Assembly: GCA_965198005.1 (NCBI GenBank)
Contig: CBDAOI010000001.1
Coordinates: 32,001-96,000, forward strand
DNA length: 64,000 nucleotides
Direction: 5' to 3'
From: Spirochaetia bacterium
GTDB taxonomy: Bacteria; Spirochaetota; Spirochaetia; SZUA-6; Bin103
This document shows positions 5,355-50,049 of this stretch, in pieces. Every line of letters begins with the position of its first letter. Position 1 is the stretch's first letter. Under the pieces are notes generated by a model. The model saw only the letters and a program-made list of their open reading frames with translations, was not told the DNA's origin and ran no database searches. Both the position numbers and the translations under genes were made by a program.

Positions 5355-5511
5355 AGGAGGTGCAAGATGATACTCAAGGGACCGCACGCGCGCGCGGCGT
5401 GAACCCGCCTGAGTCACACGCCGCGCGCTTTACAGATTTGACTCGGTCTGGCCGCCTGCGTTGCGGGCGCGAGAGTAGCCAGGGAGCGGCAATTCGCTCC
5501 GCAATACTCTC
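5355..5511 (+). promoter_or_regulatory. Structured SBP leader, copy 1: uORF plus attenuator-like hairpins
   Basis: AGGAGG; stem GCGCGCGGCGTG (5390-5401) / CACGCCGCGCGC (5417-5428) then TTT; GAGAGTA…TACTCTC stem at 5471-5511. Confidence 0.75.
5367..5402 (+). CDS. Putative leader peptide MILKGPHARAA
   Basis: Perfect SD 6 nt upstream; conserved in 4 copies. Confidence 0.6.
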   Translation: MILKGPHARAA

Positions 5512-5535
5512 AAGAATCAACATACGGAGTTACGT

Positions 5536-7341
5536 ATGAATATTGTACACATTACCAGGACCTTCGCGGTTGCGTTGGTCCTCGTCCTGACCGCGACCGG
5601 CCTCTGGGCCACGGGAGAAACCGAATCCGCAGCCGCCGAGGCTGAAATGGTGACCGTAGAGCTTATGCGCGCGGATGGAACCATGATGACCAAGGAAGTA
5701 GAGAAGCCTCGATACGGTGGAATGTACACCGAGAGCATCGAGTTGGCGCTTCCGGCAGAGTCCTCCTGGGTAACGGGTGACCCGTCCCATACGACCTGGG
5801 CCCTCCAGGTTACCAATGAGCGGCTCCTCCAGGTCGACTGGGCGCGCGGAGCTTCCGGCACCGGAGACTATGGAGTGTTCCTGGCGCCCACCCCCGACAA
5901 GAAAACGGGAGCGCTCGTCGAGAGCTGGGAACAACCCAGTCTGACCCGCATCATTCTTCACGTGCGTCCGGGAGTCCCGTTCTGGGAGCGGAGTGACGTG
6001 GCGCGGCCCAACGATGCGCTGGAGTCGGCCTACGGTCGCCACGTCGATGCCCACGACCTCGTATTCTCCTGGGGCCAGTACTTCATCAAGACCCTCGGTT
6101 ACCACTGGACGGCCGTCGATGACATGACCGTGGAGATAACGCTGGACGAACCGGACGCGACCCAGGCTCAGTTCTTCTTCGCCCAGTTCGCCGCCGTGGT
6201 GCCGCGGGAAACCGAGGGCCTCAACATGGCCGATTGGCGGAACACGCTCGGCACGGGAGCGTTCATACCGACGGAACTGACCCCCGGTAGTGTGGTAACC
6301 TTCAAGAAAAATGAGAACTACTGGCAAACGGATCACATTCATCCTGAGAACCAGCTTCCCTACCTGGACGGGATGAGAATCGTGTCGTTTGAGGATGAGG
6401 CAGGGGTCATAGCGGCGCTACGCGCCGGCAGGCTCGACCGAACGGCGGGTCTGGGAATCGCCACCAGGTGGCAGGAGAGCCTCGAGGAGACCAATCCCGA
6501 GATCCTGTCGGGTCCGGCCATCATCAATCAAAGGGTGTTCAACGTGCGCCTGGACATCGAAGGCAGCCCCTGGCAGAACCTCCTCGTTCGCCAGGCTGCT
6601 CACCTCGCCATTCCTCACGCTGAGATACGCGACGAGTTCTACCAGGGCAATGCTCTGCTCTTCGGCTGGCCCAACTTCCCGCACCACGCTCCGTTGTACG
6701 TTCCGTTTGAAGAGCTGCCCACCAGTCCGCAAATACCCGGCTCAGGGGCCAGCGCCCGGGAGCTGTTCGAATTCCATCCCGACAAGGCCCGGGAGCTTCT
6801 TGCTCAAGCCGGCTATCCCGACGGGTTCACCTTCGAATTGCTCACTCAGCCGACAGATGCGGAATGGGCCGAGCTCTACGCCGGCTACTGGGACGACGTG
6901 GGAATCAACGCCGAGTTCAACGTGGTGGAGTCCACGGTCTTTTCGTCGAGCATCGCCGCGGGCGAGCATCAGTCGATGATCGCCACGAGCTGGGGTAACT
7001 GGGCGGATCCCTACTCGGTAATGCAGCAGTACTACGACCCAGGCAATCCGTCCAACTACTCCCGCGGTACTGACGAACGCGTCACCGATGCCTACCGCCA
7101 GATCACGCAAACCCTGGACCAGGACGAGTTGATAAGGCAGTTCCAGGAGACCGCGGTCTACATCATAGAGAATGCCGTTGTGATCGCCGGCGTTCCCGAG
7201 GCTAACTTGCAGTTCTGGCAGCCGTGGGTAAAGGGTTACAGCGGCGAGCTGATCGGCGCCGGTATTCAGGGCTGGCACGACGTCGCCAAGCACGTCTGGG
7301 TCGACCAAGACCTGAGGGAGCAGATTACCGGCAGCCGCTGA
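5536..7341 (+). CDS. ABC transporter substrate-binding protein, family 5 (DppA/OppA/NikA-like)
   Basis: Signal peptide, PRYGG, LVESWEQP, LGTGAF, KNENYW, LPYLD, ARELLAQAGYPDGF, WQPWVKGY. Confidence 0.92.
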   Translation: MNIVHITRTFAVALVLVLTATGLWATGETESAAAEAEMVTVELMRADGTMMTKEVEKPRYGGMYTESIELALPAESSWVTGDPSHTTWALQVTNERLLQVDWARGASGTGDYGVFLAPTPDKKTGALVESWEQPSLTRIILHVRPGVPFWERSDVARPNDALESAYGRHVDAHDLVFSWGQYFIKTLGYHWTAVDDMTVEITLDEPDATQAQFFFAQFAAVVPRETEGLNMADWRNTLGTGAFIPTELTPGSVVTFKKNENYWQTDHIHPENQLPYLDGMRIVSFEDEAGVIAALRAGRLDRTAGLGIATRWQESLEETNPEILSGPAIINQRVFNVRLDIEGSPWQNLLVRQAAHLAIPHAEIRDEFYQGNALLFGWPNFPHHAPLYVPFEELPTSPQIPGSGASARELFEFHPDKARELLAQAGYPDGFTFELLTQPTDAEWAELYAGYWDDVGINAEFNVVESTVFSSSIAAGEHQSMIATSWGNWADPYSVMQQYYDPGNPSNYSRGTDERVTDAYRQITQTLDQDELIRQFQETAVYIIENAVVIAGVPEANLQFWQPWVKGYSGELIGAGIQGWHDVAKHVWVDQDLREQITGSR

Positions 7342-11345: not shown

Positions 11346-11554
11346 GTCACCACTGCCGGTGGCGGCGACGCTGGCGGGCGGCCGGAACGGCCGGAGTCCG
11401 CGCTTGACATGGTCAGGCAAGCCTGTGACGATAGGGAGTTCGGGGATCCCGGCCTTGCCGGCCATTCGAGACAGACAGCTTCTGTCAGGCATCTGGCAGG
11501 GCACCCTGTGGCCAAGAACCTGTGGCCAAGAAAGTGAAAAATAGGGGGTGCAAA

Positions 11555-11590
11555 ATGATACTCAAAGAACCCCACGCGCGCGCGGCGTGA
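11555..11590 (+). CDS. Putative leader peptide MILKEPHARAA (copy 2; leader truncated at about 11615)
   Basis: AGGGGG-tgcaaa-ATG; Pro codon CCC versus CCG in the other copies. Confidence 0.55.
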   Translation: MILKEPHARAA

Positions 11591-11713
11591 GCCGGGGTGA
11601 ACCCGCTGAGTCACCCCTACTGACCTAGGTTCAGAAAGGGGGCTGGGGGTTGCGTTCGGAGCACCGCTTCCGACCGCGCTCCCGGCCCCTCTCTCATTGA
11701 GCAACGTGTCCCC

Positions 11714-11840
11714 ATGAAAGCCTATATCATCAGGCGGTTATTGCTGATTCTGCCCACGCTGTTCATCTTGAGCATCCTGGTCTTTCTCTCGGTGCGCTTC
11801 ATCCCGGGAGATGTAGTAGACGTGATGACCCGATTCGCGG
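11714..11840 (+). pseudogene. DppB N-terminal fragment
   Basis: MKAYIIRRLLLILPTLFILSILVFLSVRFIPGDVVDVM. Confidence 0.85.
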
Positions 11841-11970
11841 CCGCTGGTGCTGCTGATCGATGAGATCGACGCGCTGGTGGGCGACACCCTGCTGTCGGTG
11901 CTGCGGCAGTTGCGCACCGGCTACGTCGACCGCCCGGCGCGCCGCACAGCATCATCCTGTGCGGGATGCG
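11838..11970 (+). pseudogene. AAA ATPase Walker-B fragment (piece of the 27142-28821 family)
   Basis: PLVLLIDEIDALVGDTLLSVLRQLRTGYVDRP. Confidence 0.8.
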
Positions 11971-12093
11971 TGCGCCATTCAGGCATTCCCGTACTACGTT
12001 CGCTGGGTCCGGCGTTAACCAAGCAGGCCAAGCAGGTCAGTCGATTGCCTCGCGCGTGTCGGAAGCGATAGAGTCAGTGCTCAGGCTACGGTA

Positions 12094-13851
12094 GTGAGCA
12101 CGCCCCCCGCCTACCCCCGCATTCCCTACGGCGAGGCCGACTTCAGGCGCATCCGCCGGAACCGGTGGCTGTACGTCGACAAGACCCGCTTCCTGCGGCG
12201 GCTGGAGGAGGAGCGCTACGCCTTTCTGATCCGCCCGCGCCGCTTCGGCAAGTCGCTGTGGATCTCCCTGCTGGAGAACTACTACGACCGCTTCTGGGCG
12301 GACGGCTTCGCGGCCACCTTCGCCGGCACCGAGATCGGGCAGGACCCGACCGGGGAACAAAGCCGCTACGTCACCCTGCGCTTCAACTTTTCAGCCGTCA
12401 ACGACAAGCTCGAAACCTTGGAGCGGGAGTTCGAGACCTACTGCTTCATAGCGCTGCGGGGGACGCTGCGGCGGCATCCCGACCTGTTTCCCGAAGCGGC
12501 GGTACGGGACATCCTCGCGCCGCCCTCCATCGCCACCAAGCTGTCCGAGCTGTTCTGGTACGCGGGCGACCATGACATCCCGCTGTACGTGCTGATCGAC
12601 GAGTACGACAACTTCGCCAACACCGTGCTGGCGTACCACGGCGCCGAGGCGTACCACTCCTTCACCCACGGCGGCGGCTTCTACCGCAACTTCTTCGCCA
12701 CCCTGAAGTCCGGCGCGGACCGCAGCGGCGGCGGTCTGGAGCGGCTGTTCATCACCGGCGTGTCGCCGATCACCATGGACGACGTCACCAGCGGCTTCAA
12801 CATCGGCACCAACGTCAGCCTGCACCCGGACTTCAACGAGATGGTGGGCTTCACCGAGGCGGAGGTGCGGCGCCTGGTCGAGACCTACCGGGAGCTGGGC
12901 GTGTTCAACCAGGAGGTCGCTACCGCCATGGGGATCATGGGCGAGTGGTACAACGGCTATCGGTTCGCCAAGGCAGCCGAGACCGACCTGTACAACTCCG
13001 ACATGGTGCTCTACTACCTGAAGGATTCGATGCCGAACCGAGACGTGCCGGAATACCTGATCGACACCAACGTGCGCATCGACTACGGCAAGCTGCGCCA
13101 CCTGCTGGTGACCGGCCGGCAGCTCAACGGCAACTTCGACCTGTTGCGGGACGTGATCGGCGAGGAGCAGGTGGACACGCACATCCAGCCGGGCTTTCCG
13201 CTGAAGGACCTCACCAAGCCCGAGAACTTCCTCTCGCTGCTGCACTACTTCGGGCTGCTGAGCATCCGCGACGTGGTGGAGCGGGTGCCGCGGCTGGCGA
13301 TCCCGAACCAGACCGTGAAGCGGCTGATGTATGGCTTTCTGCGCGATGCCTACCGCGACGTGGAGGTGTTTTCAGTAAACCTGTTCCGGTTCGAGCAACT
13401 GATGATGCGGATGGCCAACCGGGGCGAGTGGCGGCCGGCGTTCGAGTTCCTGAGCGAGGCGATCGCACGGCAGACGGGGATTCGCGACTACATCGCCGGC
13501 GAGAAGGTTGTGCAGGGGTTCCTGGCTGCCTATCTGAGCGTGAGCGACCATTACGTGTTCCGCTCGGAGGCGGAGCTGGGCAAGGGGCACGCGGACATCT
13601 GCCTGGAGCCGCTGGTGGCCCGTTATCCGAACCTGCAGCGCGGCTATCTGATCGAGCTCAAGTACGTGAAGCGCAGCGAGTCGGCGGACGAGGCCGCCGT
13701 GGCGGCGGCGGCCACCGCGGCAACGGCGCAGCTCGAGCGGTATCTGGCGGAGGAGCGGCTGGCGCGGCAGTTTCCGGGGGTGCGCTTCATCGGCCTGATC
13801 GTGGTGTTCCACGGCTGGGAAATGGTGTTCTGCGATGCCGTGCGGAGGTGA
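12094..13851 (+). CDS. AAA-ATPase-like domain + PD-(D/E)XK nuclease protein
   Basis: IPYGEADF..IR…YVDKT…RPRRFGKSL…LIDEYD…FITGV…WYNGY…SE.ELGKGHADI…IELKY. Confidence 0.9.
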   Translation: MSTPPAYPRIPYGEADFRRIRRNRWLYVDKTRFLRRLEEERYAFLIRPRRFGKSLWISLLENYYDRFWADGFAATFAGTEIGQDPTGEQSRYVTLRFNFSAVNDKLETLEREFETYCFIALRGTLRRHPDLFPEAAVRDILAPPSIATKLSELFWYAGDHDIPLYVLIDEYDNFANTVLAYHGAEAYHSFTHGGGFYRNFFATLKSGADRSGGGLERLFITGVSPITMDDVTSGFNIGTNVSLHPDFNEMVGFTEAEVRRLVETYRELGVFNQEVATAMGIMGEWYNGYRFAKAAETDLYNSDMVLYYLKDSMPNRDVPEYLIDTNVRIDYGKLRHLLVTGRQLNGNFDLLRDVIGEEQVDTHIQPGFPLKDLTKPENFLSLLHYFGLLSIRDVVERVPRLAIPNQTVKRLMYGFLRDAYRDVEVFSVNLFRFEQLMMRMANRGEWRPAFEFLSEAIARQTGIRDYIAGEKVVQGFLAAYLSVSDHYVFRSEAELGKGHADICLEPLVARYPNLQRGYLIELKYVKRSESADEAAVAAAATAATAQLERYLAEERLARQFPGVRFIGLIVVFHGWEMVFCDAVRR

Positions 13852-31824: not shown

Positions 31825-32016
31825 CGCGAGCGGTTGACATGCTTGCCGCGCGTGCGAGCGTGCAGCGTTCGGGGATCGACGGATGGGAATGAGGCAGTAC
31901 GGCCACTCCGTGACACGTAAGACCATGACAAGCGATGCGCAGCTATCGCCCCCTGGTCAGCTTTTTCCGACTGGGCGCCACAGCCAGCGCAGTGACCGGT
32001 TGGCGGTGACGCAACC
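31825..32016 (+). promoter_or_regulatory. Cassette promoter block
   Basis: GAGCGGTTGACA, tcgacggatg and cagcgcagtgaccggttggcggtg, all shared with 11228-11345. Confidence 0.5.
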
Positions 32017-32476
32017 GGTGCGTGTGCGCCAGGCTAACTGGCATATGACAAAGGGTGGAAGTCCCTGGGGTCCCCGACCCCCTGCATCGCCGCTTCAAGC
32101 TGCTGTGTGCCACCCGCGGTCTGTGGATGTGCGCGGAGGTCATTCGCCCGATCGAGCGGGAACTCGCCATGGTCGACGATCTCGAGGCCGCTCTGCGTGC
32201 GGTGCTCGGCCAAGCGTCGGCGCCGCCTCGAGAGGACCTCGGCAGTTGGGCCGGCTGGGCCGATTCGTGGTTGACGTTCACGGGGGCGGAGGTTATGATA
32301 GGGTGGATGCAGTCAATCGCGACATCGCGACTACATCTGGGTATGGCTGTGCCTCACCTGCGGAGGGCTTGAGTGACCTATAACACGTCAACGCTTATGA
32401 CACTCTGTTCCCCTGACAGCCGCTCGCCGAGAATTGCTGAAAATCAGCTCGCGGCGGGCTTGCTTAATGGTGAGGA

Positions 32477-32650
32477 GCCCCCCCCCCCCCACACACACAC
32501 ACACTTTTCGCAACCGAGAAACAACTAACCGCTCCGGCTGATCGCGCCCCCGCGCACGCCATCGCCTTCAGCACCGGGGTAGCGGCCGGCTACCACCGCA
32601 ACGGTCCTGGATCCCCGCCCCCCAACTCACCGTCACAGAACCGACCGCCG
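32477..32650. repeat. Poly-C tract + about 150-bp block shared with 45012-45178
   Basis: aaccgagaaacaactaaccgctcc…caccgtcacagaaccgaccgccg present in both. Confidence 0.85.
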
Positions 32651-32669
32651 GCGTGCGCGGGAGTTCATG

Positions 32670-32966
32670 GGCACCTGCAACCGCGCACGCATCGTCTGCC
32701 TGAGCACCGTGAACCGTCCGTTACTCCCCTTCGTCCCGCAGATGTGCGTGAACCCGAGGAAGTCGAAGGTCTCGGGCTTGCCCTGACCTCAGCACCCCGA
32801 AGTAATTGCCTTTCGCGGCTCGATACCCGGCCCCCACGTACCCCTGTCAACGCTTCACCCCCGCTCTTGCGAGCGACGGCGCATGACTCGGGGCCGTCGT
32901 GGGTCGCTGGCCCTTCGACGTGTGACTCTTTCATTCACAACAACCTTGCCGGTTTTGCCGGCGCAC
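32670..32966 (-). mobile_element. Group II intron remnant: 5' end fused to a late RT fragment
   Basis: Begins GTGCGCC at 32966; GKPETFDFLGFTHICG…FTVLRQT at about 32690-32785. Confidence 0.8.
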
Positions 32967-33133
32967 AGGAGGTGCAAAATGATACTCAAAGAACCGCACG
33001 CGCGCGCGGCGTGAGCCCGGGTGAACCCGCTGAGTCACACGCCGCGCGCTTGAGGAATTTGACTCAGACTGGCCGTCCGCGTTGCGGGCCCGAGAGTAGC
33101 CAGGGAGCGGCAATCCGCTCCGGAATACTCTCG
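32967..33133 (+). promoter_or_regulatory. Structured SBP leader, copy 3
   Basis: 12-bp stem 33002-33013 / 33038-33049; TGAGTCA…TGACTCA; CGAGAGTA…TACTCTCG. Confidence 0.75.
32979..33014 (+). CDS. Putative leader peptide MILKEPHARAA
   Basis: AGGAGG-tgcaaa-ATG. Confidence 0.6.
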   Translation: MILKEPHARAA

Positions 33134-33157
33134 AAAAATCTACATGCGGAGAAGCGT

Positions 33158-34960
33158 ATGAATATTGCAATTATTAGAATGACCTTCTTGGTTGCGTTGG
33201 TCCTGGTCCTGACCGCAACCGGCCTCTGGGCCGCTGGCGCAGACGAAGAGGGGTCGGCAGCGGCCGCCGACAAGAAGTATGTGACCGACCCCGTCACCGG
33301 CAAGGTGGTAGTGGCGCCAGAGTATGGCGGGACATTAACCTACGGCCGCAGATTTGGGTGGGGGACGAATACTGACCCCTATTTCGGCTGGGTCGACATG
33401 AACATCTCGGGCGTCAATGAGAAGATGGGTATCGGCGACTGGGGACTAAACAGGGACGAATATGACTTCAATTCGGGCCCGCTCCCCGTGTCCGCCGTAA
33501 CAGGGAGGCTGGCTGAAGGCTGGGATATTTCTCCCGACGGCCTCACCTATACCTTCAACATCCGAGAGGGCGTTAACTGGCATGATAAGCCGCCGGTGAA
33601 CGGTCGGGAACTGACTGCCCATGATGTCGAATACAACTATAACCGTATGTTGGGCCTGGGCGACTTCACCGACGCCGGACCTAGCCCCTTTGGTAGCGCC
33701 GCCGCACTCACCTCCATACCATTCGAATCGATAACGGCCACCGACAATCGCACGGTTGTCATGAAGCTGAAGGAGCCACACCTCCCTGCGCTGGGGCTTA
33801 TCCTCACCGACTACTTTGTTTACATAATGCCCCCCGAGGTAATCGAGCAACAAGGCGACATTAGGGATTGGACGGACCTCGTCGGCACCGGACCCTTTAT
33901 GCTGACTGAGTTTGTCGATGAGAGCTATATAACCTGGACCAAGAATCCTGACTACTGGAAGTTCGACGAAAAATACCCGCAGAACCGACTGCCCTACGTT
34001 GACGAGTTAACGTTACTGGTTATTCCAGAGGAAGCAACATTTATGGCGGGACTACGCTCAGGCGCGATTGATATCAGAGGCCCGGCAGGGGGATGGGCTA
34101 CTTCTCTCGACCAGGTAGAGAGCATCCAGCGGACCAACCCCGAAGTAGTGCTGCACACGCAATTTTTCCGCGCGAGTGATGCTTTTGCTACTAACGTGGA
34201 CAAGCCGCCCTTTAGCGACATCCGGGTGCGCAAGGCAATGCAGATGGCACTGGACCTCGAGACCATTAACAATACCTTCTATAAGGGTTATGCAGAGACG
34301 ACACCTCAAGGTCTGGTAGGGGTGAAAGGGTATTTCATCCCATTTGAAGAGTGGCCCGAAGAGGTCAAGAAGGGCTATATGTATGACCCGGAAGCTGCCG
34401 AGAAGCTCCTTGATGAGGCTGGATATCCGCGCGGCGCGGATGGCATTAGATTCAAGACCTCCCACATGATACACCCGGCAGGCAACAGCTTGGACTTTAC
34501 AGAAATAGTTGCCTCCTACTGGGCTGAGATTGGCGTCGATGTTGAGATTGATGTAGCCATCAGCGCCGAATGGACCGAGAGGCTGCGTACTTATGAAGGC
34601 ATCGTCAGCGGCATTTCTGGCACCATTTATGCCCCTCTCATGGTCGTAGGCTGGTATCACTCGGACACCCACAACATGAACCGCGCCCGATCCCAGTGGC
34701 CTGAGTTGGACGCCATGGTTGAAGCCGCCCAAGCGGCGACGACCATTGAAGATATGCAGCGGCTGATTGCAGAGGCAGATATGTACGCGATGGAGAATCA
34801 CTGGCTGGGATGGACTCCCAAACTTCCAGTATGGTGGTTGCTCCAGCCGTGGGTCATAGGCTATAGCGGTGAAGCAATGTACCTGGCACCTAACGAGGCG
34901 AATGACATCCTCGCCCGCCTCTGGATTGATAATGACCTGAAGGAAGCAATGGGGCATTAG
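33158..34960 (+). CDS. ABC substrate-binding protein, family 5
   Basis: Signal peptide, APEYGG, WHDKPPVNGRELTAHDV, VGTGPF, NRLPYVD, DIRVRKAM, LLDEAGYPRG. Confidence 0.93.
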   Translation: MNIAIIRMTFLVALVLVLTATGLWAAGADEEGSAAAADKKYVTDPVTGKVVVAPEYGGTLTYGRRFGWGTNTDPYFGWVDMNISGVNEKMGIGDWGLNRDEYDFNSGPLPVSAVTGRLAEGWDISPDGLTYTFNIREGVNWHDKPPVNGRELTAHDVEYNYNRMLGLGDFTDAGPSPFGSAAALTSIPFESITATDNRTVVMKLKEPHLPALGLILTDYFVYIMPPEVIEQQGDIRDWTDLVGTGPFMLTEFVDESYITWTKNPDYWKFDEKYPQNRLPYVDELTLLVIPEEATFMAGLRSGAIDIRGPAGGWATSLDQVESIQRTNPEVVLHTQFFRASDAFATNVDKPPFSDIRVRKAMQMALDLETINNTFYKGYAETTPQGLVGVKGYFIPFEEWPEEVKKGYMYDPEAAEKLLDEAGYPRGADGIRFKTSHMIHPAGNSLDFTEIVASYWAEIGVDVEIDVAISAEWTERLRTYEGIVSGISGTIYAPLMVVGWYHSDTHNMNRARSQWPELDAMVEAAQAATTIEDMQRLIAEADMYAMENHWLGWTPKLPVWWLLQPWVIGYSGEAMYLAPNEANDILARLWIDNDLKEAMGH

Positions 34961-34992
34961 GAGTTTCACAGCTTTTGCTGAGTTCAGGGAAG

Positions 34993-35030
34993 AAGGGAGC
35001 TGGGGGGCTTGAGTCTCCCGGCTCCCTTAC
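34993..35030 (+). terminator. SBP-dppB intercistronic hairpin (homologs at about 11635-11695 and 47580-47620)
   Basis: aagggagctggggg…ctcccggctccctt. Confidence 0.6.
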
Positions 35031-35062
35031 TTATGGGGGAATAAACGCGATGAGGTGGTGAC

Positions 35063-36064
35063 ATGAGAACCTATATTGTCAGGCGGTTATTGCTGATGAT
35101 CCCCACCTTGTTTGTATTGACCATCCTGGTGTTTCTCTCGGTGCGTTTCATCCCCGGCGACGTAATAGACGTAATGTTGGGTAAGGATGAATTCATCGGT
35201 CGTGAAATAGACCGTGAAGCTCTTGAGCATATGCTGGGATTGGACGTGCCTGTGCACGTGCAGTATGGACGCTGGATAGGAGTGTTGCCGACCCCTGACT
35301 GGCTTACCGGTGAGTCCCACTTTACAGGTCTCCTCGAGGGCAACCTCGGCCACTCACTGATTAGCGGCCAGGGGCCGGTCAAGGAGAAGATACTAGCTAG
35401 ACTGCCAGTCACCATTGAGCTCGGTGTCATGGCAATCGTAATCGGGCTCTTGATAGCGCTGCCCGTCGGCATCTACTCGGCGATTCGCCAGGATACCCCC
35501 GCCGACTACCTGGGGCGCTCCATCGCCATCCTCGGTCTGGCAACGCCTAACTTTTGGTTGGGTATTATGGTCATGATCTACCCGGTAATCTGGTGGGGCT
35601 GGTCGCCACCGATGAAGCTTATTCCTTTCACGGAAGACCCGCTGGCGAATCTCGGGATTCTCATCATTCCCAGCGTGATTCTGGGGACCTACCTTGCTGC
35701 AGCCACCATGCGGATGACGCGCACGATGATGCTGGAGGTGCTCAGGCAGGACTATATCAGGACGGCCTGGTCCAAGGGTCTCAATGAGAGGATAGTCGTT
35801 CTGAGACACGCCGTCAAGAATGCACTCATCCCGGTAGTTACTTTGATAGGCATGCAGTTGCCTATCCTGGTAGGTGGCTCCGTTATCATGGAGAACATAT
35901 TTAACCTGCCAGGGCTAGGTCGTCTCATGGTGACTGCACTGGAAGCCAGAGACTACCCGGTGATCTCCGGAGTAAACCTGGTTTTCGGCACCGCGGTTTT
36001 GGGAACAAATCTAATGATCGACATGATCTATCCTTATTTGGACCCCAGGGTCCGTTATAGGTAA
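35063..36064 (+). CDS. ABC permease, DppB-like
   Basis: Same motifs as 7495-8454. Confidence 0.93.
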   Translation: MRTYIVRRLLLMIPTLFVLTILVFLSVRFIPGDVIDVMLGKDEFIGREIDREALEHMLGLDVPVHVQYGRWIGVLPTPDWLTGESHFTGLLEGNLGHSLISGQGPVKEKILARLPVTIELGVMAIVIGLLIALPVGIYSAIRQDTPADYLGRSIAILGLATPNFWLGIMVMIYPVIWWGWSPPMKLIPFTEDPLANLGILIIPSVILGTYLAAATMRMTRTMMLEVLRQDYIRTAWSKGLNERIVVLRHAVKNALIPVVTLIGMQLPILVGGSVIMENIFNLPGLGRLMVTALEARDYPVISGVNLVFGTAVLGTNLMIDMIYPYLDPRVRYR

Positions 36065-36084
36065 AGGGGGGGGGAACCAGGAAT

Positions 36085-37017
36085 ATGAACGACTCCATAG
36101 GGATACCATCAGTAGAAATTGCGCCAAAGAGACGCTCACGGCTGGCTGATTCCTTTATCGGGCTGGTCAAGAAGAAGCCACTGGGTACTGCCGGCGGGAT
36201 TATCATATTGATATTCATTTTCGTCGCCATCTTTGCCGATGTTCTGGCTCCTTATCCATATAGTGAAATACACCTGACAGACAGGTTTCAGGGCGCATCA
36301 GCCCGGTATCTGCTGGGTACCGACCAGTTGGGGCGAGACTTCCTGAGCCGCCTTATCTACGGGGCTCGTCTTTCGTTAAGTGTCGGTATGGCCGCTACCA
36401 CTCTGCACGTTGTGGTGGCTGTCCTGATAGGCGGCATTTCAGGATTCTTTGGTGGTAAACTGGACTTGGGTGTGCAGAGATTTGTCGATGCCTGGATGGC
36501 TTTCCCGGGACTGCTCCTGTTGTTAACCATAATGTCCATAGCGGGACGGGGTCTGTTACAGATAATACTGGTGCTGGGGATAGCAGGGGGCATCGGCGGC
36601 TCAAGAGTAGTCAGAGGCGCCGTGATCGATGTGAAGGAGAACGCGTATTTCCAGGCAGTGGAAGTGATTGGCGCCTCGAAGTGGAGAATCTTCATCCGGC
36701 ATGTCCTGCCCAATATCATGGCTCCCGTTATTATCATATTCAGCATCACCGTCGGGGGGGTGATTATGTCTGAGGCCTCTCTGAGCTTCCTCGGATTCGG
36801 TCTGCCACCCAAGGTTCCTAGCTGGGGAGGTCTGCTCAGCCGGGAAGGACGTCAGTACATGGAGATGGCCCCATGGCTGGCTCTCTGGCCTGGTCTTTGC
36901 CTGACCATCACCGTCTTCAGTCTAAACATGTTCGGCGACGCCATGAGGGACCTGCTCGACCCGCGGCTCATCGGTGGTGCGGGGCGTCCGGGTGCGCAAG
37001 AGGCCAGATCGGTCTAG
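36085..37017 (+). CDS. ABC permease, DppC-like
   Basis: LGTDQLGRD…SFLGFGLP…NMFGDAMRDLLDPRL. Confidence 0.93.
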   Translation: MNDSIGIPSVEIAPKRRSRLADSFIGLVKKKPLGTAGGIIILIFIFVAIFADVLAPYPYSEIHLTDRFQGASARYLLGTDQLGRDFLSRLIYGARLSLSVGMAATTLHVVVAVLIGGISGFFGGKLDLGVQRFVDAWMAFPGLLLLLTIMSIAGRGLLQIILVLGIAGGIGGSRVVRGAVIDVKENAYFQAVEVIGASKWRIFIRHVLPNIMAPVIIIFSITVGGVIMSEASLSFLGFGLPPKVPSWGGLLSREGRQYMEMAPWLALWPGLCLTITVFSLNMFGDAMRDLLDPRLIGGAGRPGAQEARSV

Positions 37018-37351
37018 GCGAGTTGACGTACCGCATGCGGCTCCCAGTCGGGATCCGCGCCTGCGGCGGCGCAGGTGGCCACGCGCGTACGCCTGGGAAC
37101 GCGGCTACCCTACTCACCGATGTGCGACCGCCACCCACGCGGGTTCACGCCGGATGCACGGTGACCTCCCGTGGCGCCATCCCTGGCGCCCGGAACGCGC
37201 CCGAGGTCGACGAGCGCCGGGCTGGGTATGGGCGTGACCTGGCCGGTCAGCTCAAGGCGGCGCCTGGCATCGTAGTGTCTGCGCATCATCGGCCCCCCCC
37301 ACGATGCACGGTTGGTGCGTGCACACAACGAACCACGTGAGGAGGGTCAGA

Positions 37352-37547
37352 ATGGCCAGGAGGACATCGACGATGGAACTACAGGATATCGTCCGACGAC
37401 TGAGAATGGGGCAGTCGATCAAGGCGATCAAGCGTGAGACCGGCAAGCACCGGCGCGTGATCCGCAGGCTGCTGCTGCTCGCCGAGCAGGAGGGGTGGCT
37501 GGATGAGCAGCATGAGGTGCCGTCCGAGCAGCAACTCCAGGAGGTCG
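37352..37547 (+). mobile_element. istA: IS21-family istA N-terminal HTH fragment
   Basis: DIVRRLRMGQSIKAIKRETGKHR…GWL…PSEQQLQEV overlaps the start of the 18725 fragment (PSEHQLQEV). Confidence 0.75.
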
Positions 37548-37639
37548 CGTTGCTGATCGGCGGCACCACCCGCTATCGCCCGATCAGCCACGGGAGAGTT
37601 CGCTCTATCGTGCAAGGATCGCCTCGAGGTTGGCGTGGT

Positions 37640-38090
37640 CCACGAGCATGGTACGCTGGATCGTCGCCCCGGCGGGGGGTCGGGTGTCAATCTCGACCTT
37701 GATCGAGAGCTTCTGCTGCTGATGACCGGACAGACCGGCGTCCGCCAGGAGAGAGGCGGTGCGAATCCAGGCGACGTGCACCGGCGTGCGGTCGATCCAT
37801 CGAATCGTACTGTCGAATCCGGCGAGATGGAGGTCTCGCTTGAGCTTGCGCAGCCAGCCTACCGGATCGTACGCCGCGGGGGAGCGTTGCGAAAAATCGA
37901 GGTCCTCCGAGAAGCGCGGCAGGTCCTCAAGAAAGCGCAGCGCCGTCCCGCCGACAAACGCCAGCGCGCGCGCAGCTTCGCTCTCGTGCAGCGACCGCAT
38001 GATGAACGCCTGGAGGTACTCGCGCAGAGCGTTGAGCCTGCGTACCGGATCATCGTAACCCCGCGCAATTGCGAGCGCGCGCTCTTTCAC
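37640..38090 (-). pseudogene. AbiEii nucleotidyltransferase toxin, C-terminally truncated
   Basis: LREYLQ…FVGGTALRFL..LPRFSEDLDFS…IKVEIDTRPP. Confidence 0.85.
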
Positions 38091-38728
38091 AGTTCCACAC
38101 CCGCCGGTTCCTGCGCAGCACAACACTCCCGCCACGCCTCGACGGCGCGCATGATCCTGGGTCTGGCCACCCGTTGCGTGTAGGCGTGCAAGCGATCGGA
38201 GTCGACCACCGCGCTCTGCTGAAACCGCATCTCCATCATCCTTGGGCGATCCCACTCTCCGGGGGTCAGGTGAAACAGGTCGAGGAGCGCTTTCTCCGGT
38301 GTGGCGATGAACACCTCGGCGCCGGCGATCGTCACCGCGTGGTAGCCAAAGAACAAAGTTCGCTTGAGGTTGGTGTAATGGAACGCCCCGAAGGGATTCT
38401 CGAACCGCCGCGGGGCGCGGGTGGTTACGCTGGTGTATTCCGCCACGGCTTCCGGAATCAATCCGTAGAACCCGAGCGCCCAGAGTCCGCTCAGATAGGA
38501 GGGGGAATACAGCGCGTTGGCCAGGGTGGCCGACGACACGGGCACGCGCCGATAGCGCTCGGCGAGGGTGTACATGCCACGGCGCAGCGGCACCAGCTTG
38601 CCCGCCCGGCTCCACCGGTGGAGCTGACTGACGAGGCTGGGATGAGACTCCTCCGTAAGTTGCACGACCGTGGCCAGATCGAAGTAGGGCATCTTGCCAA
38701 GGATATCGACGGCAGCGTCAAGGCGCAT
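38087..38728 (-). CDS. AbiEi-type antitoxin (type IV TA)
   Basis: LRRGMY…LYSPSYLS…AL.FYGLIPE…TSVT…IATPEKALLD. Confidence 0.88.
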   Translation of the reverse strand: MRLDAAVDILGKMPYFDLATVVQLTEESHPSLVSQLHRWSRAGKLVPLRRGMYTLAERYRRVPVSSATLANALYSPSYLSGLWALGFYGLIPEAVAEYTSVTTRAPRRFENPFGAFHYTNLKRTLFFGYHAVTIAGAEVFIATPEKALLDLFHLTPGEWDRPRMMEMRFQQSAVVDSDRLHAYTQRVARPRIMRAVEAWRECCAAQEPAGVEL

Positions 38729-38742
38729 AGTCTTATTGATGA

Positions 38743-38764
38743 TAATAGACATCAATGTCTATTA
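38743..38764. promoter_or_regulatory. Perfect inverted repeat, probable AbiEi operator
   Basis: TAATAGACAT-CA-ATGTCTATTA immediately upstream of abiEi. Confidence 0.7.
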
Positions 38765-38789
38765 AGTCAATCGAAGGTCTCGCGAGCTG

Positions 38790-39157
38790 CGCGAGTCGGC
38801 CGTGCCGGCCATACCGAGCGACCCCGGTACGGCGAGTCAACATCGACAAGCCGGACGGGGGCACACGACCGCTGGGGGTGGCCGCGCTGGAGGACAAGAT
38901 CGTCCAGAAGGCCGTCGTGGACGTGATCCTGACTCCGATCTATGAGGAGGAATTTCTCGGGATCAGCTATGGGTTTCGACCGGGGCGCGGGGCACACGAT
39001 GCGTTGGACGCACTGGCCTACGCCATCGAACGGCGCGAAGTGAACTGGATATTGGACGCGGACATCCGCGCCTACTTCGACTCGATCTCGCGGGACTGGT
39101 TGATCAGATTCCTGGAGCATCGGATTGGAGACCGGCGCGTGTTGCGGCTGATCGTCA
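38790..39157 (+). mobile_element. Group II intron reverse transcriptase internal fragment
   Basis: YR..PVRRV.I.KPDGGTRPLGV..LEDKIVQ…SYGFRPGRGAHDAL…LDADI..YFDSI…HRIGD.RVLRLI; no YADD. Confidence 0.88.
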
Positions 39158-39278
39158 TGCTCGCCTTTGAAGGAGCCCTTGCGGAGGTTCGGCGGCCGCT
39201 GCGCTGCCAGGATGTCGAGCTTGTTGGCTGGATCGACCCGCAGGTACAGTTCGGTCGATCCGCGACGGACAGTCGCGG

Positions 39279-39390
39279 TCAGAGGCGGCCGACGCTGCCG
39301 CGCAGCCGGGGGTCGAGCAGGTCGCGCAGCGCGTCGCCGAACATGTTGATGCTGTAGACCACAATGGTCAGGCACAGGCCCGGCCAGATC
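39279..39390 (-). pseudogene. dppC 3' fragment (inverted)
   Basis: IWPGLCLTIVVYSINMFGDALRDLLDPRLRG. Confidence 0.85.
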
Positions 39391-39637
39391 GTCAACGGCG
39401 GCGACCATGCCGCGCTGGGGCGGCACGCGGAGGCGCAAGGTCCGCGCTGCCCGGCGGGCCAGGAAGTCCGCAACCATCGAGAGCTGCTCAATCGCGATCA
39501 GCTTCTCGCGCAACGGGAGCGCGCGGTCACCACGACCACTGTAGCATGCTGCGCGGTTGCGGTCGCCGCCGCTGGATCTGCTCCGGGGGCTGGCGGCATA
39601 GTTGACTTTTTGCATTTCCATTGCATAATCACCAGCA

Positions 39638-40861
39638 ATGAGCCTGCCCTACATCAACCGCTCGCTGGAACCGGTGCTCGAGCAGGCGGCCGCGGAGTTT
39701 CCCGCCGTCGTCCTGACCGGGCCGCGCCAGTCCGGCAAGACAACCCTGCTGCACCATCTGTTCGGGGAACGGTACCGCTACGTGTCTCTGGAGCCGCCAG
39801 ATGTTCGGACAGCCGCCGCGAATGACCCGCGCGGGTTCCTGGAACGGTATTCGGCGCCAGTCATCTTCGACGAGGTGCAGTATGCGCCCGACCTGCTGCC
39901 CTACGTCAAGGAGAAGATCGACGCCAGCCGCGCCACGGGCGGTCAATACCTGCTGACCGGCTCACAGAACCTGCTGCTGGCCGAGAAGGTAACCGAGTCG
40001 CTGGCGGGCCGCGCCGCCATGCTCCGCCTGTTGCCGTTGTCGAGGCGGGAGGCCGAGGGACGGCCGCGGCGACCCCTGGCTTGGGAACGCAAGCCGTCCC
40101 CGTCGGCGACAACGGCCGGCGGGTTCGGCGAACTGTGGCAGGGTTTTCTGCGCGGCGGGTACCCGGAACTCGCGATCCAACCCGATCGGGATCTCTCCCT
40201 GTGGCATGCCAGCTACATCCAGACCTATCTCGAGCGCGACCTGCGCACCCTGCGGCAGGTCGGCGACCTGACCCAGTATCAGAATTTCCTGCGGCTGCTG
40301 GCGGCGCGCAGTGCTCAGTTGCTGAGCCTGACCGACGTGGCACGCGACCTCGGAGTTGCCGTCAATACGATCAAGGCGTGGCTCGCCGTGCTCGAGGCCA
40401 CCTACCAGGTGATCGTGCTGCGCCCCTACTTCGCCAACGTCGGCAAGCGGCTGGTCAAGACCCCGAAGGTGTATTTCTCCGATGTCGGCACGCTCTGCTA
40501 TCTCGCGGGCCTCAAGGACCCCGAGCATGCCGCCTCCGGCCCGATGGGCGGAGCGATCATGGAGACGGCGGTGTTGTCCGAAATCGTGCGCACGCTGACG
40601 CATCGGGGCATCGACCCCCAGGTCTTCTTCTGGCGGACCGTGGCGGGCACGGAAGTGGACTTTGTGGTCGAGGTCGGCGGCCGGCTCGTCCCCATCGAGG
40701 TAAAGCTGTCCGCGACGCCGCGCCCGGCCATGGCCGCCGCCATCAAGACATTCCACGGCGACATGCCCAGCGCGGCACTGCCTGGATATGTGGTTCATCC
40801 GGGCGACATCCACCTGCCCCTCGGCGCGGGCGTGACTGCGTTGCCGTTCGTCGACCTGTAG
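39638..40861 (+). CDS. AAA_14 + DUF4143-type ATP-binding protein
   Basis: LTGPRQSGKTT, IFDEVQ, LTGSQ, ESLAGR, GGYPE, YLERD, KRLVKTPKVYFSDVG, EVDF…PIEVK. Confidence 0.9.
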   Translation: MSLPYINRSLEPVLEQAAAEFPAVVLTGPRQSGKTTLLHHLFGERYRYVSLEPPDVRTAAANDPRGFLERYSAPVIFDEVQYAPDLLPYVKEKIDASRATGGQYLLTGSQNLLLAEKVTESLAGRAAMLRLLPLSRREAEGRPRRPLAWERKPSPSATTAGGFGELWQGFLRGGYPELAIQPDRDLSLWHASYIQTYLERDLRTLRQVGDLTQYQNFLRLLAARSAQLLSLTDVARDLGVAVNTIKAWLAVLEATYQVIVLRPYFANVGKRLVKTPKVYFSDVGTLCYLAGLKDPEHAASGPMGGAIMETAVLSEIVRTLTHRGIDPQVFFWRTVAGTEVDFVVEVGGRLVPIEVKLSATPRPAMAAAIKTFHGDMPSAALPGYVVHPGDIHLPLGAGVTALPFVDL

Positions 40862-41147
40862 TGCGGGCCGGCAGTAGCCCCTCAGTGATCACTTGAGATT
40901 CTGCACCCTGCATGCCGTTAACGTAGCCATGATGAAACAGGTCGATGAGCGCGGCGCTGGAGTACTGGGGAGTTCTCATTGTGGCACCATTACGAATGAC
41001 ATAATCGCAATAGTGCCACAAGGGCCGGTAGCATTCAACAGAAACGCCACAACAAGCCGTCCTACCGCGTCCATACCGCCACCCAGCGTACCGATAACGG
41101 CTTGATTACGTCTATCTACGTGGATTTATATTTGCGCCGGCCCTTAG

Positions 41148-41575
41148 CGGACTCATCATCGCCGTTCCGATCGGCATCTACTCGGCAATTCGCCAGTATA
41201 CGATGACCGACTACGCCGGCCGGGCGGTCGCCATCTTCGGCCTGGCGACCCCCAACTTCTGGCTGGGACTGATGGTTATGATCTACCCGGCCATCTGGTG
41301 GGGCTGGGCGCCACCGCTGACCTACGTCCGCTTCAGCGAAGACCCATGGGGCAATCTCGGCATTCTGATCCTCCCCGCGCTGATTCTGGGCACCTACCTG
41401 CGCTATGAGTCGCCGGTCGACGCGGCCGGAGCCGGCCGCGGAGGCGCAGGCGGAGGCGCACGCGGTGGTGGCGGCCCAAGCGGCGGCGCGGGTGCCGGAC
41501 CCTCCGCGGCGGGCGCCCCTGCACCGGCGCGCCGGCGACCGGTGGCCAGATTCTTGTCGCCGCTCCTCGTCCAGA
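41148..41575 (+). pseudogene. dppB/dppC junction remnant of the Gly-rich cassette lineage
   Basis: PIGIYSAIRQY…ILGTYL fused to RYE, then the Gly/Ala-rich DppC N-terminus. Confidence 0.8.
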
Positions 41576-41644
41576 TACGGCAACGGGTCGCGCGCCAGCC
41601 GAGGCCTGTCGGCCGAGTCTGACACCGACTATCGGTAGCCATGC

Positions 41645-41890
41645 CTATTCGTCCACTCGCCGTAGCGCTTCATCCATCACTTGTCGCGAGAGATGAAGAC
41701 CAGCGATCATCATTTCCTCAATGACGGGCCGATCCATTCCCGCGATCCGGGCCGCCCACTCTTGCGAAATGCGTCCCTGCTGATACCACTGGATGGCAGC
41801 AGCCAGTCGCAACTCCTGGTCGAGGGTTCCAGGCGCACACTGCAGCAGGGAACAAACCGCGTCCGGTAGTTCTAATCTTACTTGAGTCAT
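41645..41890 (-). pseudogene. UPF0175 antitoxin fused to a DUF3368-like PIN tail
   Basis: ELRLAAAIQWYQQGRISQEWAARIAGMDR // PVIEEM..AGLHLS…EAL. Confidence 0.65.
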
Positions 41891-42003
41891 TGATCCACTA
41901 TGGGTTGCCGCGTCCTTGGGTGGCTGACCGGCACCGGTCAGCATCTCTCCTTCTATTATGATGGCTGACGGCGGTAGGTTCAAGGGGTGGTGATGGTATG
42001 GAT

Positions 42004-42250
42004 GGCACGCTCGTCCGTCACGTCCTGCCCAACATCGCCGCGCCGCTGATCGTCGTGTTCAGCATCAACGTCGGCGGCGTGATCATCGCCGCGGCTGGCG
42101 CTGTGGCCGGGCCTGTGTCTGACGGTGACGGTCTACGCCCTCAACCTGTTCGGCGACGCGGTGCGCGACCTGCTGGACCCGCGCCTGCGCGGCGCCGCCG
42201 GCCGCTACGGGGGCGGGCGCCGCCCACGCCGCGCGCCGCGCCGCGGCTGA
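42004..42250 (+). pseudogene. dppC 3' fragment with internal deletion
   Basis: Matches 60915-61262 minus about 100 bp. Confidence 0.85.
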
Positions 42251-42370
42251 GCCGCCCAGCACGGTCCTTCTAGCACGCGCGGGAAGGCGAAGATTCGCTT
42301 GTAGTTGTCGTCGGTTGATAGCGCGGCCCGGTACTTGCCGAACGGGCGGAAAGTGACCATATTATGCCGT

Positions 42371-42793
42371 ATGGCAACGGTGGCCTCAGCGGCGCGTGAC
42401 ACTCGCCCCAACCGCGCCAGTGAAATCAGCGACGCGGAAACACTCGCCCTGCTGCGCGCATTCTTCAATCTGGTACGGCGGTGGGCGCTCAACGACCAGC
42501 AGGGGCGAATCCTCCTGGGCGGGCCGGCCGCGCGCACCTACGCGCGCTGGAAAGCCGGACAGGTCGAGCTGTCGCGCGTTTCACGCGACACCCGTGAGCG
42601 GCTGTCCACACTGATGGGCATTCACCGGAACCTGCGATACCTGTTTCCCGATCCGTCGCGCGGTTACCGTTGGCTGCGCAAGCCGAACCAGGCGTTCGGC
42701 GGCCAACCGGCGTTGAACCGGCTGCTTGGCGGATCGATCCCGGATCTGGCCGCTGTCCGCGCCTATCTCGACGCGGAACGCGGCGGTTGGTAG
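42371..42793 (+). CDS. Xre/MbcA/ParS-type antitoxin
   Basis: W.L…ILLG…TY.RWK…DTRERLS.LMGIH..L…WLRKPN.AFGGQ…VRAYLDAERG. Confidence 0.88.
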   Translation: MATVASAARDTRPNRASEISDAETLALLRAFFNLVRRWALNDQQGRILLGGPAARTYARWKAGQVELSRVSRDTRERLSTLMGIHRNLRYLFPDPSRGYRWLRKPNQAFGGQPALNRLLGGSIPDLAAVRAYLDAERGGW

Positions 42794-43485
42794 TCCCTCG
42801 CACCAGCCGCGTTCGCTGGCCGCGGGCCGTTCGCCTTGTCCGGTCGATGTACCCCCCGATCGACCTGTTCGAGGATATTGCGGATCGGGCCGACTGGGAA
42901 TTGATCGCCGCTGCCGAAGCCAAGACCAACCCGCGGGTGCGCGACGAAATCGGCGCCATCCATCTGGTGCCGCCGGCGCGGCGCGTGGCCGGGCCCGGCG
43001 CCAGCTGGGCGATGGCGCCGTTCTGCCACATATCGCGCGACCGGCCGAGCCGGTTCAGTGACGGGAGCTACGGCATGTACTACGCTGGAGACCGCTTCGA
43101 GGTGGCGCTGGCGGAGGCGGTGTACCACTTCGAGCGTTTCATGGCGGCAACCGATGAGGAGCCGGCCACCGCCGATTACCGCGAGCTGATCAGCCGTATC
43201 GACGCGGACCTGCACGACCTGCGCGACACGGCGGGTTTCGAAGCCGCGCTGGACGCCAACGACTACGCTGCTGCGCAGTCGTTGGCGCACGAACTGCGCT
43301 GGAACCATGCCAGCAACGGCATCGTCTATCCGAGCGTGCGCCACCCCGCGGGTGCGGCGGTGGCGGCGTTCTGGCCCGATGTGGCGGGCCTTCCCGTCCC
43401 TGGCAGACACCTCTGCTATCACTGGGACGGCCGTCGGGTGGATGCATGGTTGGTGTACGGAGAAGCAGACTGGCGCCCTCGGTGA
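42787..43485 (+). CDS. RES-domain toxin (NAD+-targeting family)
   Basis: MAPFCH…SRFSDGSYG.YYA…ALAE..YH…GIVYPSVR. Confidence 0.9.
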   Translation: MVVPRTSRVRWPRAVRLVRSMYPPIDLFEDIADRADWELIAAAEAKTNPRVRDEIGAIHLVPPARRVAGPGASWAMAPFCHISRDRPSRFSDGSYGMYYAGDRFEVALAEAVYHFERFMAATDEEPATADYRELISRIDADLHDLRDTAGFEAALDANDYAAAQSLAHELRWNHASNGIVYPSVRHPAGAAVAAFWPDVAGLPVPGRHLCYHWDGRRVDAWLVYGEADWRPR

Positions 43486-43629
43486 TCGGGCGCCACCGCT
43501 CCAGCTCGAGGGTCGTGGCGACCAATCTCCCCGATTGCCGGGTCACCTCGTTGCTCAGCCCGAAGTAGCGGCGTCAAACCCTGCGATACCTGTGGCCGGC
43601 GACACGGTGGTGGCGACCGCGGCCTCGGG

Positions 43630-45011: not shown

Positions 45012-45355
45012 CCCCCCCCCCCACTTTTTCAAACCGAGAAACAACTAACCGCTCCGCCTGATCGCCCCGTACGTGCCCCCGCGCACGCCGTCGCCTTCAG
45101 CACCGGGGTAGCGGCCGGCTACGACCGCAACGGTCCTGGATCCCCGCCCCCCAACGCACCGTCACAGAACCGACCGCCGACGTCGCCGGTCAACCACATG
45201 CGTTGCTCGGCCGACCACCGCGCCGCGTGGCGTTGTGACGCAGGTCCCGACGTCCGCCGAGCGGTCGCTGTTTGCATGAAGGGCACGCACGCGCTACGCG
45301 CAGCGCACACCACCTTACGTCAACCATCTGGCTGGGCACCCTGTAGCCCAAAAAG

Positions 45356-45542
45356 AGGAGGTGCAAAAATGATACTCAAAGAACCGCACGCGCGCGCGGC
45401 GTGAGCCGGGTGAACCCGTTGAGTCACACGCCGCGCGCTTTTAGTGTATTTGACTCTGACTGGCCGTCCGCGTTGGCGGGCGCGCCCGCTGTTGCGGGCA
45501 TAAGAGTAGCCAGGGAGCGGCAAGTCGCTCCGCAATACTCTC
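45356..45542 (+). promoter_or_regulatory. Structured SBP leader, copy 4
   Basis: 12-bp stem 45392-45403 / 45427-45438 then TTTT; AGAGTA…TACTCT stem. Confidence 0.75.
45369..45404 (+). CDS. Putative leader peptide MILKEPHARAA
   Basis: AGGAGG-tgcaaaa-ATG. Confidence 0.6.
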   Translation: MILKEPHARAA

Positions 45543-45569
45543 AAAATCCAAGCAAGGATACTAACGACG

Positions 45570-48669: not shown

Positions 48670-48679
48670 AGGAGCGGGT

Positions 48680-49612: not shown

Positions 49613-49631
49613 GCGAGTGGACCCACCGCAT

Positions 49632-49990: not shown

Positions 49991-50049
49991 GCTGGATGAC
50001 GAGTCCGAGGAGGTCGTGCCCACAGTGCGGGGCGGGCGCCGAAAGATCG

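Follow-up and report, generated by a model that had tools for sequence, protein, structure and literature searches.

In the genome of an uncultured sponge-associated spirochaete (4.9 Mb, 66% G+C, 90% complete), a 36-nt uORF with the consensus MILKEPHARAA occurs 77 times (at no more than six substitutions from the consensus) at the head of a structured leader that is linked to genes for family-5 substrate-binding proteins (SBPs). On the basis of its sequence, we suggest that this leader acts in cis on SBP-operon mRNAs, that its 11-codon ORF is translated and that ribosome occupancy of the ORF controls the adjoining hairpin, P1, a reading to which we assign a probability of about 0.5; ribosome traffic would probably tune all of the linked importers together. 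Four of the copies lie in a stretch of 64,000 nucleotides that was analysed as a whole (hereafter, the window).

The frequency of the uORF is well above chance, as the pattern was found at 70 genome sites with up to three mismatches, against none for a reversed control. An SBP-like tblastn match lies within 900 nt downstream on the same strand for 73 of the 77 copies, and one of the other four still precedes a 485-aa ORF bearing the signal peptide of the family; downstream of 61/77 copies the ORF is intact (560–660 aa). The tie to one importer family proposed in the preliminary description is thereby upheld. The genome contains approximately 160 SBP-like loci, of which roughly half are preceded by the MILKEP leader, and a profile search with the P2-to-P4 part of the leader returned 87 genome places, with the uORF just upstream in 78. 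SBP loci that lack the MILKEP uORF carry other upstream modules, yet have a P4-like stem and a hairpin with the Shine-Dalgarno sequence (SD) in its loop in common with it (for example, window positions 50560–51080 and 56720–57240).

Beyond this genome, four MAGs named 'Spirochaetia bacterium' and two further MAG contigs proved to contain the uORF in a pattern scan of species-representative genomes. We also derived a covariance model from 63 leaders; applied with strict filters and 69 candidates scored per genome, it had hits in 7 of the 10 other congeneric genomes, and in none of the 30 more distant relatives searched in this way (13 of the sister genus and 17 in other families of the order); on this sampling, the leader is lineage-specific. 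Two complete leader-free genomes of the same genus hold one close SBP homologue each, preceded by plain promoter-like sequence and a short untranslated region. Given this single homologue compared with approximately 160 loci here, leader and SBP family expansion go together, and the module would have arisen with the burst of the family. No Rfam family matched the leader at the gathering threshold (the best sub-threshold match was atpB RNA, 13.7 bits versus 37.4, E 0.56), and no description of the element was found in a literature search for MILKEP or MILKEPHARAA or in broader searches, in agreement with the earlier impression that it is undescribed.

All four uORF copies previously located in the window were confirmed (Table 1), with AGGAGG or AGGGGG before each ATG. 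In copies 1, 3 and 4, the left arm of P1, GCGCGCGGCGTG (5390–5401, 33002–33013 and 45392–45403), pairs perfectly over 12 bp with the right arm, CACGCCGCGCGC (5417–5428, 33038–33049 and 45427–45438). The uORF is followed in these copies by P1, P2, P3 and P4, in that order, and then by the SD-in-loop hairpin at the SBP start; P2 pairs TGAGTCA with TGACTC(A), its 5′ arm adjoining the right arm of P1 and its 3′ arm lying 10–12 nt beyond it, and P4 is the GAGAGTA...TACTCTC stem with the inner GGAGCG/CGCTCC pairing that had been reported before the SBP start. Each of the three SBP genes is succeeded by two permease genes. The SBP and first permease genes are separated by strong hairpins of approximately 16 bp (GGGAGCTGGGGGG.../...CCCGGCTCCC; 34990–35030 and 47575–47625). 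An A/T-rich tail with no clean T-run comes after these hairpins, which may act as stabilisers or partial terminators.

Table 1 Leader elements and linked genes in the window
Feature	Position	Strand	Remark
SD of uORF copy 1, AGGAGG	5355–5360	+	Read from sequence
uORF copy 1, MILKGPHARAA-stop	5367–5402	+	Read from sequence
P1 copy 1: left arm 5390–5401 (last codons and TG of stop), 15-nt loop, right arm 5417–5428	5390–5428	+	−25.6 kcal/mol
P2 copy 1: TGAGTCA (5410–5416) / TGACTC(G) (5439–5445), around P1 right arm and 10-nt variable spacer	5410–5445	+	
P3 copy 1, small hairpin GCCTGC-GTT-GCGGGC	5454–5468	+	
P4 copy 1: outer stem GAGAGTA/TACTCTC, inner stem GGAGCG/CGCTCC	5471–5511	+	
SD-in-loop hairpin ATACG/CGTAT: SBP SD GGAG in loop, SBP ATG (5536) in stem	5522–5538	+	
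Family-5 SBP gene, 601 aa	5536–7341	+	Pfam SBP_bac_5, E 7.8e-47
Copy 2: SD AGGGGG and uORF MILKEPHARAA (11555–11590), remnant	11543–11590	+	
Copy 3 leader: SD 32967–32972, uORF 32979–33014, P1 33002–33049	32967–33132	+	
Copy 3 leader, rest: P2 33031–33037 with 33060–33066, P3 33075–33089, P4 33092–33132		+	
Family-5 SBP gene, 600 aa	33158–34960	+	Pfam SBP_bac_5, E 1.1e-70
Copy 4 leader: SD 45356–45361, uORF 45369–45404, P1 45392–45438	45356–45542	+	
Copy 4 leader, rest: P2 45420–45426 with 45451–45456, P3 and extra palindromic insert, P4 45502–45542		+	
Family-5 SBP gene, 597 aa	45570–47363	+	Pfam SBP_bac_5, E 5.4e-64

Copy 2 is the exception to what had been said of all four, that is, that the uORF stands in front of an SBP gene and runs into a perfect 12-bp stem: its leader ends after GAGTCAC, without the right arms of P1 and P2, P3/P4 or an SBP gene, and it is joined to a truncated permease start (first codons, read by eye) and then to an unrelated AAA-ATPase_like/PDDEXK_9 gene. 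Across 11591–13851, this copy is fused to a G-rich/C-rich hairpin resembling those between SBP and permease genes, with approximately 50 permease N-terminal codons (11714 onward) and the AAA-ATPase_like/PDDEXK_9 gene (12094–13851) downstream, and the region resembles what a deletion or rearrangement would leave behind.

The surroundings of the copies, and leaders of related layout, are varied. The only Rfam match in the window is a group II intron (D1-D4-6, 32784–32929 on the minus strand, 105.1 bits, E 1.1e-28), approximately 40 nt upstream of the copy 3 SD on the opposite strand. The interval 37605–44521 between two SBP operons contains genes for an AbiEii-type nucleotidyltransferase toxin (37605–38615, minus strand), an AAA_14/DUF4143 ATPase (39638–40861) and a DDE transposase (43307–44521). 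A second leader type (50560–51080 and 56720–57240) precedes two near-identical tandem SBP genes (50965–52884 and 57127–59046) and has no MILKEP uORF; it consists of a long G+C-rich region, with a homopolymer C run near 56897–56912, a P4-like stem (GAGAGT...ACTCTC) and a hairpin, AGGTTT/AAACCT, whose loop contains the SD GGAGG. A weak match of the covariance model in another genome (L082:2210–2420 in G008, 29.4 bits) is a different leader, in which a TTGACA-type promoter-like site and an 18-codon uORF across a hairpin (GCACGCGC/GCGCGTGC) are followed by a P4-like stem and an SBP gene; it may be a sister module of similar layout. Two divergent leaders (G000:C3:1040623–1040860, minus strand, and G000:C4:2377440–2377740, plus strand) have CTG in place of ATG and a 3-nt insertion (Gln after His), and their frame extends by three codons before it meets the next TGA; both retain P1, and P2 is replaced.

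Several features of the uORF (a 12-codon frame from ATG to TGA that specifies an 11-residue peptide) are those of a coding sequence. An SD (GGAGG, GGGGG or a near variant) lies 5–7 nt before the start in 77/77 copies, and the start codon is ATG in 73, GTG in three and TTG in one, such that both signals are retained in the whole set of 77; 11 of 126 copies in five other genomes, mostly those with two or three mismatches, have no xTG at the start. The stop codon is TGA in all 77 copies, and it is kept in 119 of the 126 elsewhere (TGA in 114 and TAA in 5, with no stop in 7), the TAA copies having lost a stem pair while retaining the stop. Of the 77 copies, just one, which is degenerate, has an indel within the ORF; two copies have lost 2 nt from the GC run, in both cases after a TAG at codon 7, and the only insertion seen in the uORF is one of 3 nt. 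The synonymous differences already noted between the window copies extend to all 77, in which variation in codons 3–6 is nearly all synonymous (Leu, CTC 54 and CTG 23; Lys, AAA 75 and AAG 2; Glu, GAA 57 and GAG 17; Pro, all four codons) around an invariant Leu-Lys-Glu-Pro core. Minor alleles in codons 2–6 number 7, 4 and 52 at codon positions 1, 2 and 3 (each of 385, in related copies whose allele counts are not independent events), and counted as distinct alleles the bias is just 3:2:7.

The A-rich codons ATA, AAA and GAA are retained despite the 66% G+C of the genome and third positions are far from saturated, so a constraint at the RNA level also acts, and from codon 8 on the coding signal in these alignments is not separable from that of the stem. 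Statistics for codons 3–6 and 8–12 at loci L031–L074 are biased by the fetching pattern and were therefore left out as coding evidence. Substitution pattern, SD, indels and stop retention together support the coding-like character that had been attributed to the short ORF. Comparison of the copies thus establishes a coding-like pattern, constraint on the element and linkage to the SBP family, and the element is very probably a translated cis-regulatory leader. As a separate candidate, fusion of the uORF to the SBP by frameshift or readthrough was rejected, given that no slippery heptamer is present and that each of the three phases is represented among the stop-to-start distances (25, 18 and 18 of 61).

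At the RNA level, the last four codons and the stop form the 5′ arm of P1, a 12-bp G+C hairpin with folding energies of −25.6 to −32.7 kcal/mol, the right arm of which is present in 72/77 genome copies. The P1 loop is 14, 24 or 46 nt long, and length changes are confined to loops. None of 200 shuffles folded as well as the whole leader (z = −3.98), with the RNA downstream of the uORF stop predicted to be almost fully structured as P1–P4, and the spacer between the invariant helices is of free sequence and is 10–12 nt long in 59 of 72 copies. In a helix alignment, 94.4% of cells are paired and 6 of 41 pairs, none of them in P1, changed on both sides; the helices hardly vary, so covariation, which had been suggested as a check, cannot decide. 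The order of the arms (P1-left, P2-left, P1-right, spacer, P2-right) would fit an H-type pseudoknot, or a P2 hairpin that forms when P1 is held open.

At the SBP start, a further hairpin (window 5522–5538 and 33144–33160, and genome-wide) carries the ATG in its stem, with the SD in the loop; its sequences differ with the pairing kept (ATACG/CGTAT, ATAGG/CCTAT and ATGG/CCAT), and the SBP ATG is paired in the local fold at 33 of 61 intact loci. Control of this GGA-in-loop hairpin by CsrA was considered and rejected, as CsrA was not found in the 90%-complete genome, and an informal inspection by eye revealed no ANTAR, TRAP or K-turn-type motifs.

Such conservation of helices raises the possibility, which we regard as real if doubtful, that the leader is a structured RNA whose helices are functional and are read by a trans-acting protein, RNA or ligand, or serve as a processing or 5′-stabilising element, with the SD and mini-ORF only loading a ribosome and the peptide sequence irrelevant. 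P1 and P2 may then form an H-type pseudoknot followed by P3 and P4, as the order of their arms and a spacer that varies in sequence and keeps its length, as in a pseudoknot loop, would suggest; near-invariant helices, the occurrence of P4 and the SD-in-loop hairpin in uORF-less leaders as well, and A-rich codons kept against the genomic G+C bias point in the same direction, and the stem alone explains codons 8–11 (for example, Ala to Val at codon 11 comes from a C-to-U substitution, which leaves a G-U pair in place). However, a structured RNA of this kind does not predict the three-base periodicity in codons 3–6, the limitation of start changes to GTG and TTG, the change of TGA to TAA that breaks a pair but keeps the stop, or the restriction of out-of-frame deletions to copies with a premature TAG; nor do the lack of an Rfam match and the failure to find CsrA speak for it.

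The alternative that follows from the preliminary description, namely a classical trp/his-type attenuator with P1 as a U-tract terminator and the GAGTCA/TGACTC pairing (that is, P2) as antiterminator, now appears unlikely. A strong G+C stem does come straight after the leader ORF and is followed by TTTT in 12/72 copies. However, the T residues seen after the stem in the window copies are not conserved, as 15 of 72 genome copies have no T directly after P1, 11 have one, 27 have two and just 19 have three or four, the tail after P1 being the most variable part of the leader; the P1 loop, moreover, is long for an intrinsic terminator. Genome-wide, strong hairpins precede 51 of 1392 runs of at least five T (3.7%) compared with 1586 of 32000 runs of two or three T (5.0%), so hairpins are not enriched before T-runs and canonical hairpin-plus-U-tract terminators are not evident in this organism, in which canonical intrinsic terminators seem uncommon. 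Runs of at least five T are themselves rare (1392 on both strands of 4.9 Mb). P2 does enclose the right arm of P1, as had been described, but it has no base in common with the P1 stem and its 3′ arm lies beyond the P1 tail, past the would-be release site; it therefore does not compete by overlap, cannot pre-empt P1 and cannot be a classical antiterminator, and no alternative antiterminator helix overlapping P1 was found. MILKEPHARAA contains no tandem regulatory codons, its three Ala codons sitting in the stem and tolerating Val, Gly or Thr, so there is no obvious amino-acid signal. A Rho gene is present in the genome, and an open C-rich Rho loading site was not found after the uORF stop, where the RNA is structured in the predicted fold. 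In four sponge metatranscriptome runs, contigs over window positions 32000–50000 cover the P1 region (33052 and 45407); these contigs give no starts, ends, strand or level and mix approximately 75 paralogous leaders.

The history of the module bears on whether its similarity reflects selection or copying. Among 250 random pairs of the 61 intact loci, median pairwise identity is 0.60 in the 100 nt upstream, 0.80 in the leader (a value lowered by optional inserts), 0.81 in the first 105 nt of the SBP gene and 0.70 in the coding sequence for the mature SBP. A variable spacer separates invariant helices, length changes are confined to loops and the same leader variants recur in several species, which argues for purifying constraint on the leader, and not for recent copying, wholesale gene conversion or blanket homogenisation. 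On a FastTree phylogeny of 132 SBP paralogues, the presence of the uORF requires at least 33 changes, compared with 43–46 in label shuffles (five of 50 shuffles), so paralogous leaders have often acquired, lost or swapped the module. The same uORF is found behind at least five different classes of upstream sequence, which suggests locus-specific promoters with a common leader layer; a promoter consensus scan gave 6 promoter-like sites versus 5.3 in shuffles, that is, no excess. It is highly improbable that the module is a selfish or recombining repeat, or a promoter cassette, that gene conversion has spread through the paralogous operons and kept uniform, and that has no regulatory role of its own: the scatter of the uORF on the SBP tree, remnant copies away from SBP genes and nearby mobile DNA (the group II intron and the DDE transposase) would suit it, but orientation and position relative to the SBP gene are constant (73/77 copies upstream and co-oriented, which contradicts a REP/MITE-like dispersal without fixed gene family or orientation, as well as the mobile repeat unlinked to SBP genes that had been envisaged earlier), the spacer diverges freely between invariant helices, variants are common to several species and not homogenised per genome, and substitutions are coding-like.

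Control through ribosome occupancy of the uORF can be envisioned in more concrete terms from codon 7, the one free position of the peptide (CAC 57, TAG 12, TAC 5 and CGC, GAG and TGG one each among 77 copies; also TGG, TTG, CTC and TAT in other genomes). TAG at this codon recurs in several species (12/77 here and 11/126 elsewhere) and 9 of the 12 TAG copies are followed by an intact SBP gene, so a stop at codon 7 is tolerated. The footprint of a ribosome extends approximately 12–13 nt beyond the A site, and with codon 7 in the A site the leading edge would already lie over most of the left arm of P1 (uORF nt 24–35), such that the sense and TAG forms can share one mechanism. The TAG form ends in Glu-Pro-stop, and such ends in E. 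coli are described as causing strong SsrA tagging and termination stalling (Hayes et al. 2002, as cited in PMC7246954), with slow release after Pro (Pierson et al. 2016, as cited in PMC7246954); the same source allows that stalling or slow release at Pro ends may be species-specific.

Ribosome-mediated attenuation in the broad sense would accordingly seem the best reading, in which the ribosome dwells at one of two places: at codon 7, where Pro-tRNA would occupy the P site and the variable codon, sense or TAG, the A site, or at TGA. The 5′ arm of P1 lies under any ribosome whose A site is between codon 7 and the stop, inclusive, so occupancy and P1 would be mutually exclusive, and the presence of a ribosome during passage of the polymerase would decide whether P1 forms; P1, in turn, would lower expression of the SBP operon through hairpin-dependent termination, pausing or RNA processing. 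One leader before approximately 75 operons with differing upstream sequences would thus add a common translation-linked control over locus-specific promoters. Translation of the uORF, pausing of the ribosome, reduction of expression by P1 and the nature of the signal are what we infer from sequence. More tentatively, Leu-Lys-Glu-Pro might be the core of a new and very short arrest peptide, with Pro-tRNA in the P site whatever the A-site codon, in which case the arrested ribosome would keep P1 (possibly as part of a pseudoknot) open and the approximately 75 operons might constitute a 'regulon without a regulator', coupling half of the importer repertoire to a global translation signal (for example, EF-P or release-factor status, amino-acid supply or a host-derived compound); we consider this stronger version possible rather than probable. 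The natural variants (codon 7 changes, copies lacking the right arm, loop lengths and uORF-less leaders) provide a ready mutational series.

How this putative control relates to known leader peptides can be judged from its parts. Given that the leader has neither the overlapping antiterminator, codon run and conserved U-tract of the trp type nor the open Rho site of the TnaC type, it appears to be a member of neither family and would represent, on its sequence features, a form of leader-peptide control distinct from both. TnaC and SpeFL (24 and 34 residues) each respond to a specific metabolite and keep Rho from loading on unstructured RNA, and TnaC has Pro in the P site at the stop codon. The likeness to these two noted in the preliminary description stands as a functional analogy (that is, short conserved leader peptides and, as proposed here, ribosome occupancy controlling downstream transcription), whereas the layout differs, as the RNA after the stop is almost fully structured here and no ligand is evident. 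Other relevant precedents are pyrBI and pyrE, examples of coupling-type attenuation, and erm, cat and cmlA, which have drug-inducible short leader peptides.

In coupling-type attenuation, the ribosome itself prevents the hairpin (a principle outlined in PMC5021804), and here too the ribosome footprint, not an alternative helix, would block P1; however, no nucleotide-sensitive pause sites are evident here, and the peptide is conserved, which coupling alone does not require. The trpL, hisL and pheL attenuators likewise have a leader ORF and then a G+C hairpin before the structural genes (compare PMC1183508 and PMC3082878), but in the present leader there is no regulatory codon run, overlapping antiterminator or conserved U-tract, the stop codon lies inside the hairpin arm and the targets are importers. 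Another close counterpart is PepNL of E. coli pepN, a 14-residue uORF that is described as arresting at UGA without an inducer, with stem-loops predicted around the stop (PMC11890864); both uORFs are very short, end in UGA and lie upstream of a gene of peptide use, whereas the peptides are unrelated and PepNL is a single locus compared with approximately 77 copies per genome here. Arrest of PepNL takes place at the stop codon (PMC11890864), whereas arrest is conjectural here and the occurrence of a stop at codon 7 in some copies suggests a dwell site upstream of TGA. Drug-inducible leaders (for example, MsrDL, PMC10314930, and vmlR, PMC9226507) are similar in having peptides of 5–20 residues and a stalled ribosome over the 5′ arm of a hairpin. 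They differ in serving resistance genes, usually by freeing a downstream SD, whereas the present leader precedes approximately 75 importer operons and the SBP SD is approximately 130 nt away. Leader-peptide control is known mostly from single biosynthesis or drug-resistance operons, whereas in this single genome the same module of leader peptide and hairpin recurs in front of approximately 75 paralogous importer operons. If it were a true arrest peptide, MILKEPHARAA would rank with the shortest such peptides known and would come with naturally occurring variants of the A-site codon, a stop among them; it would also illustrate how a symbiont can do without a dedicated regulator in coordinating a large set of transporters.
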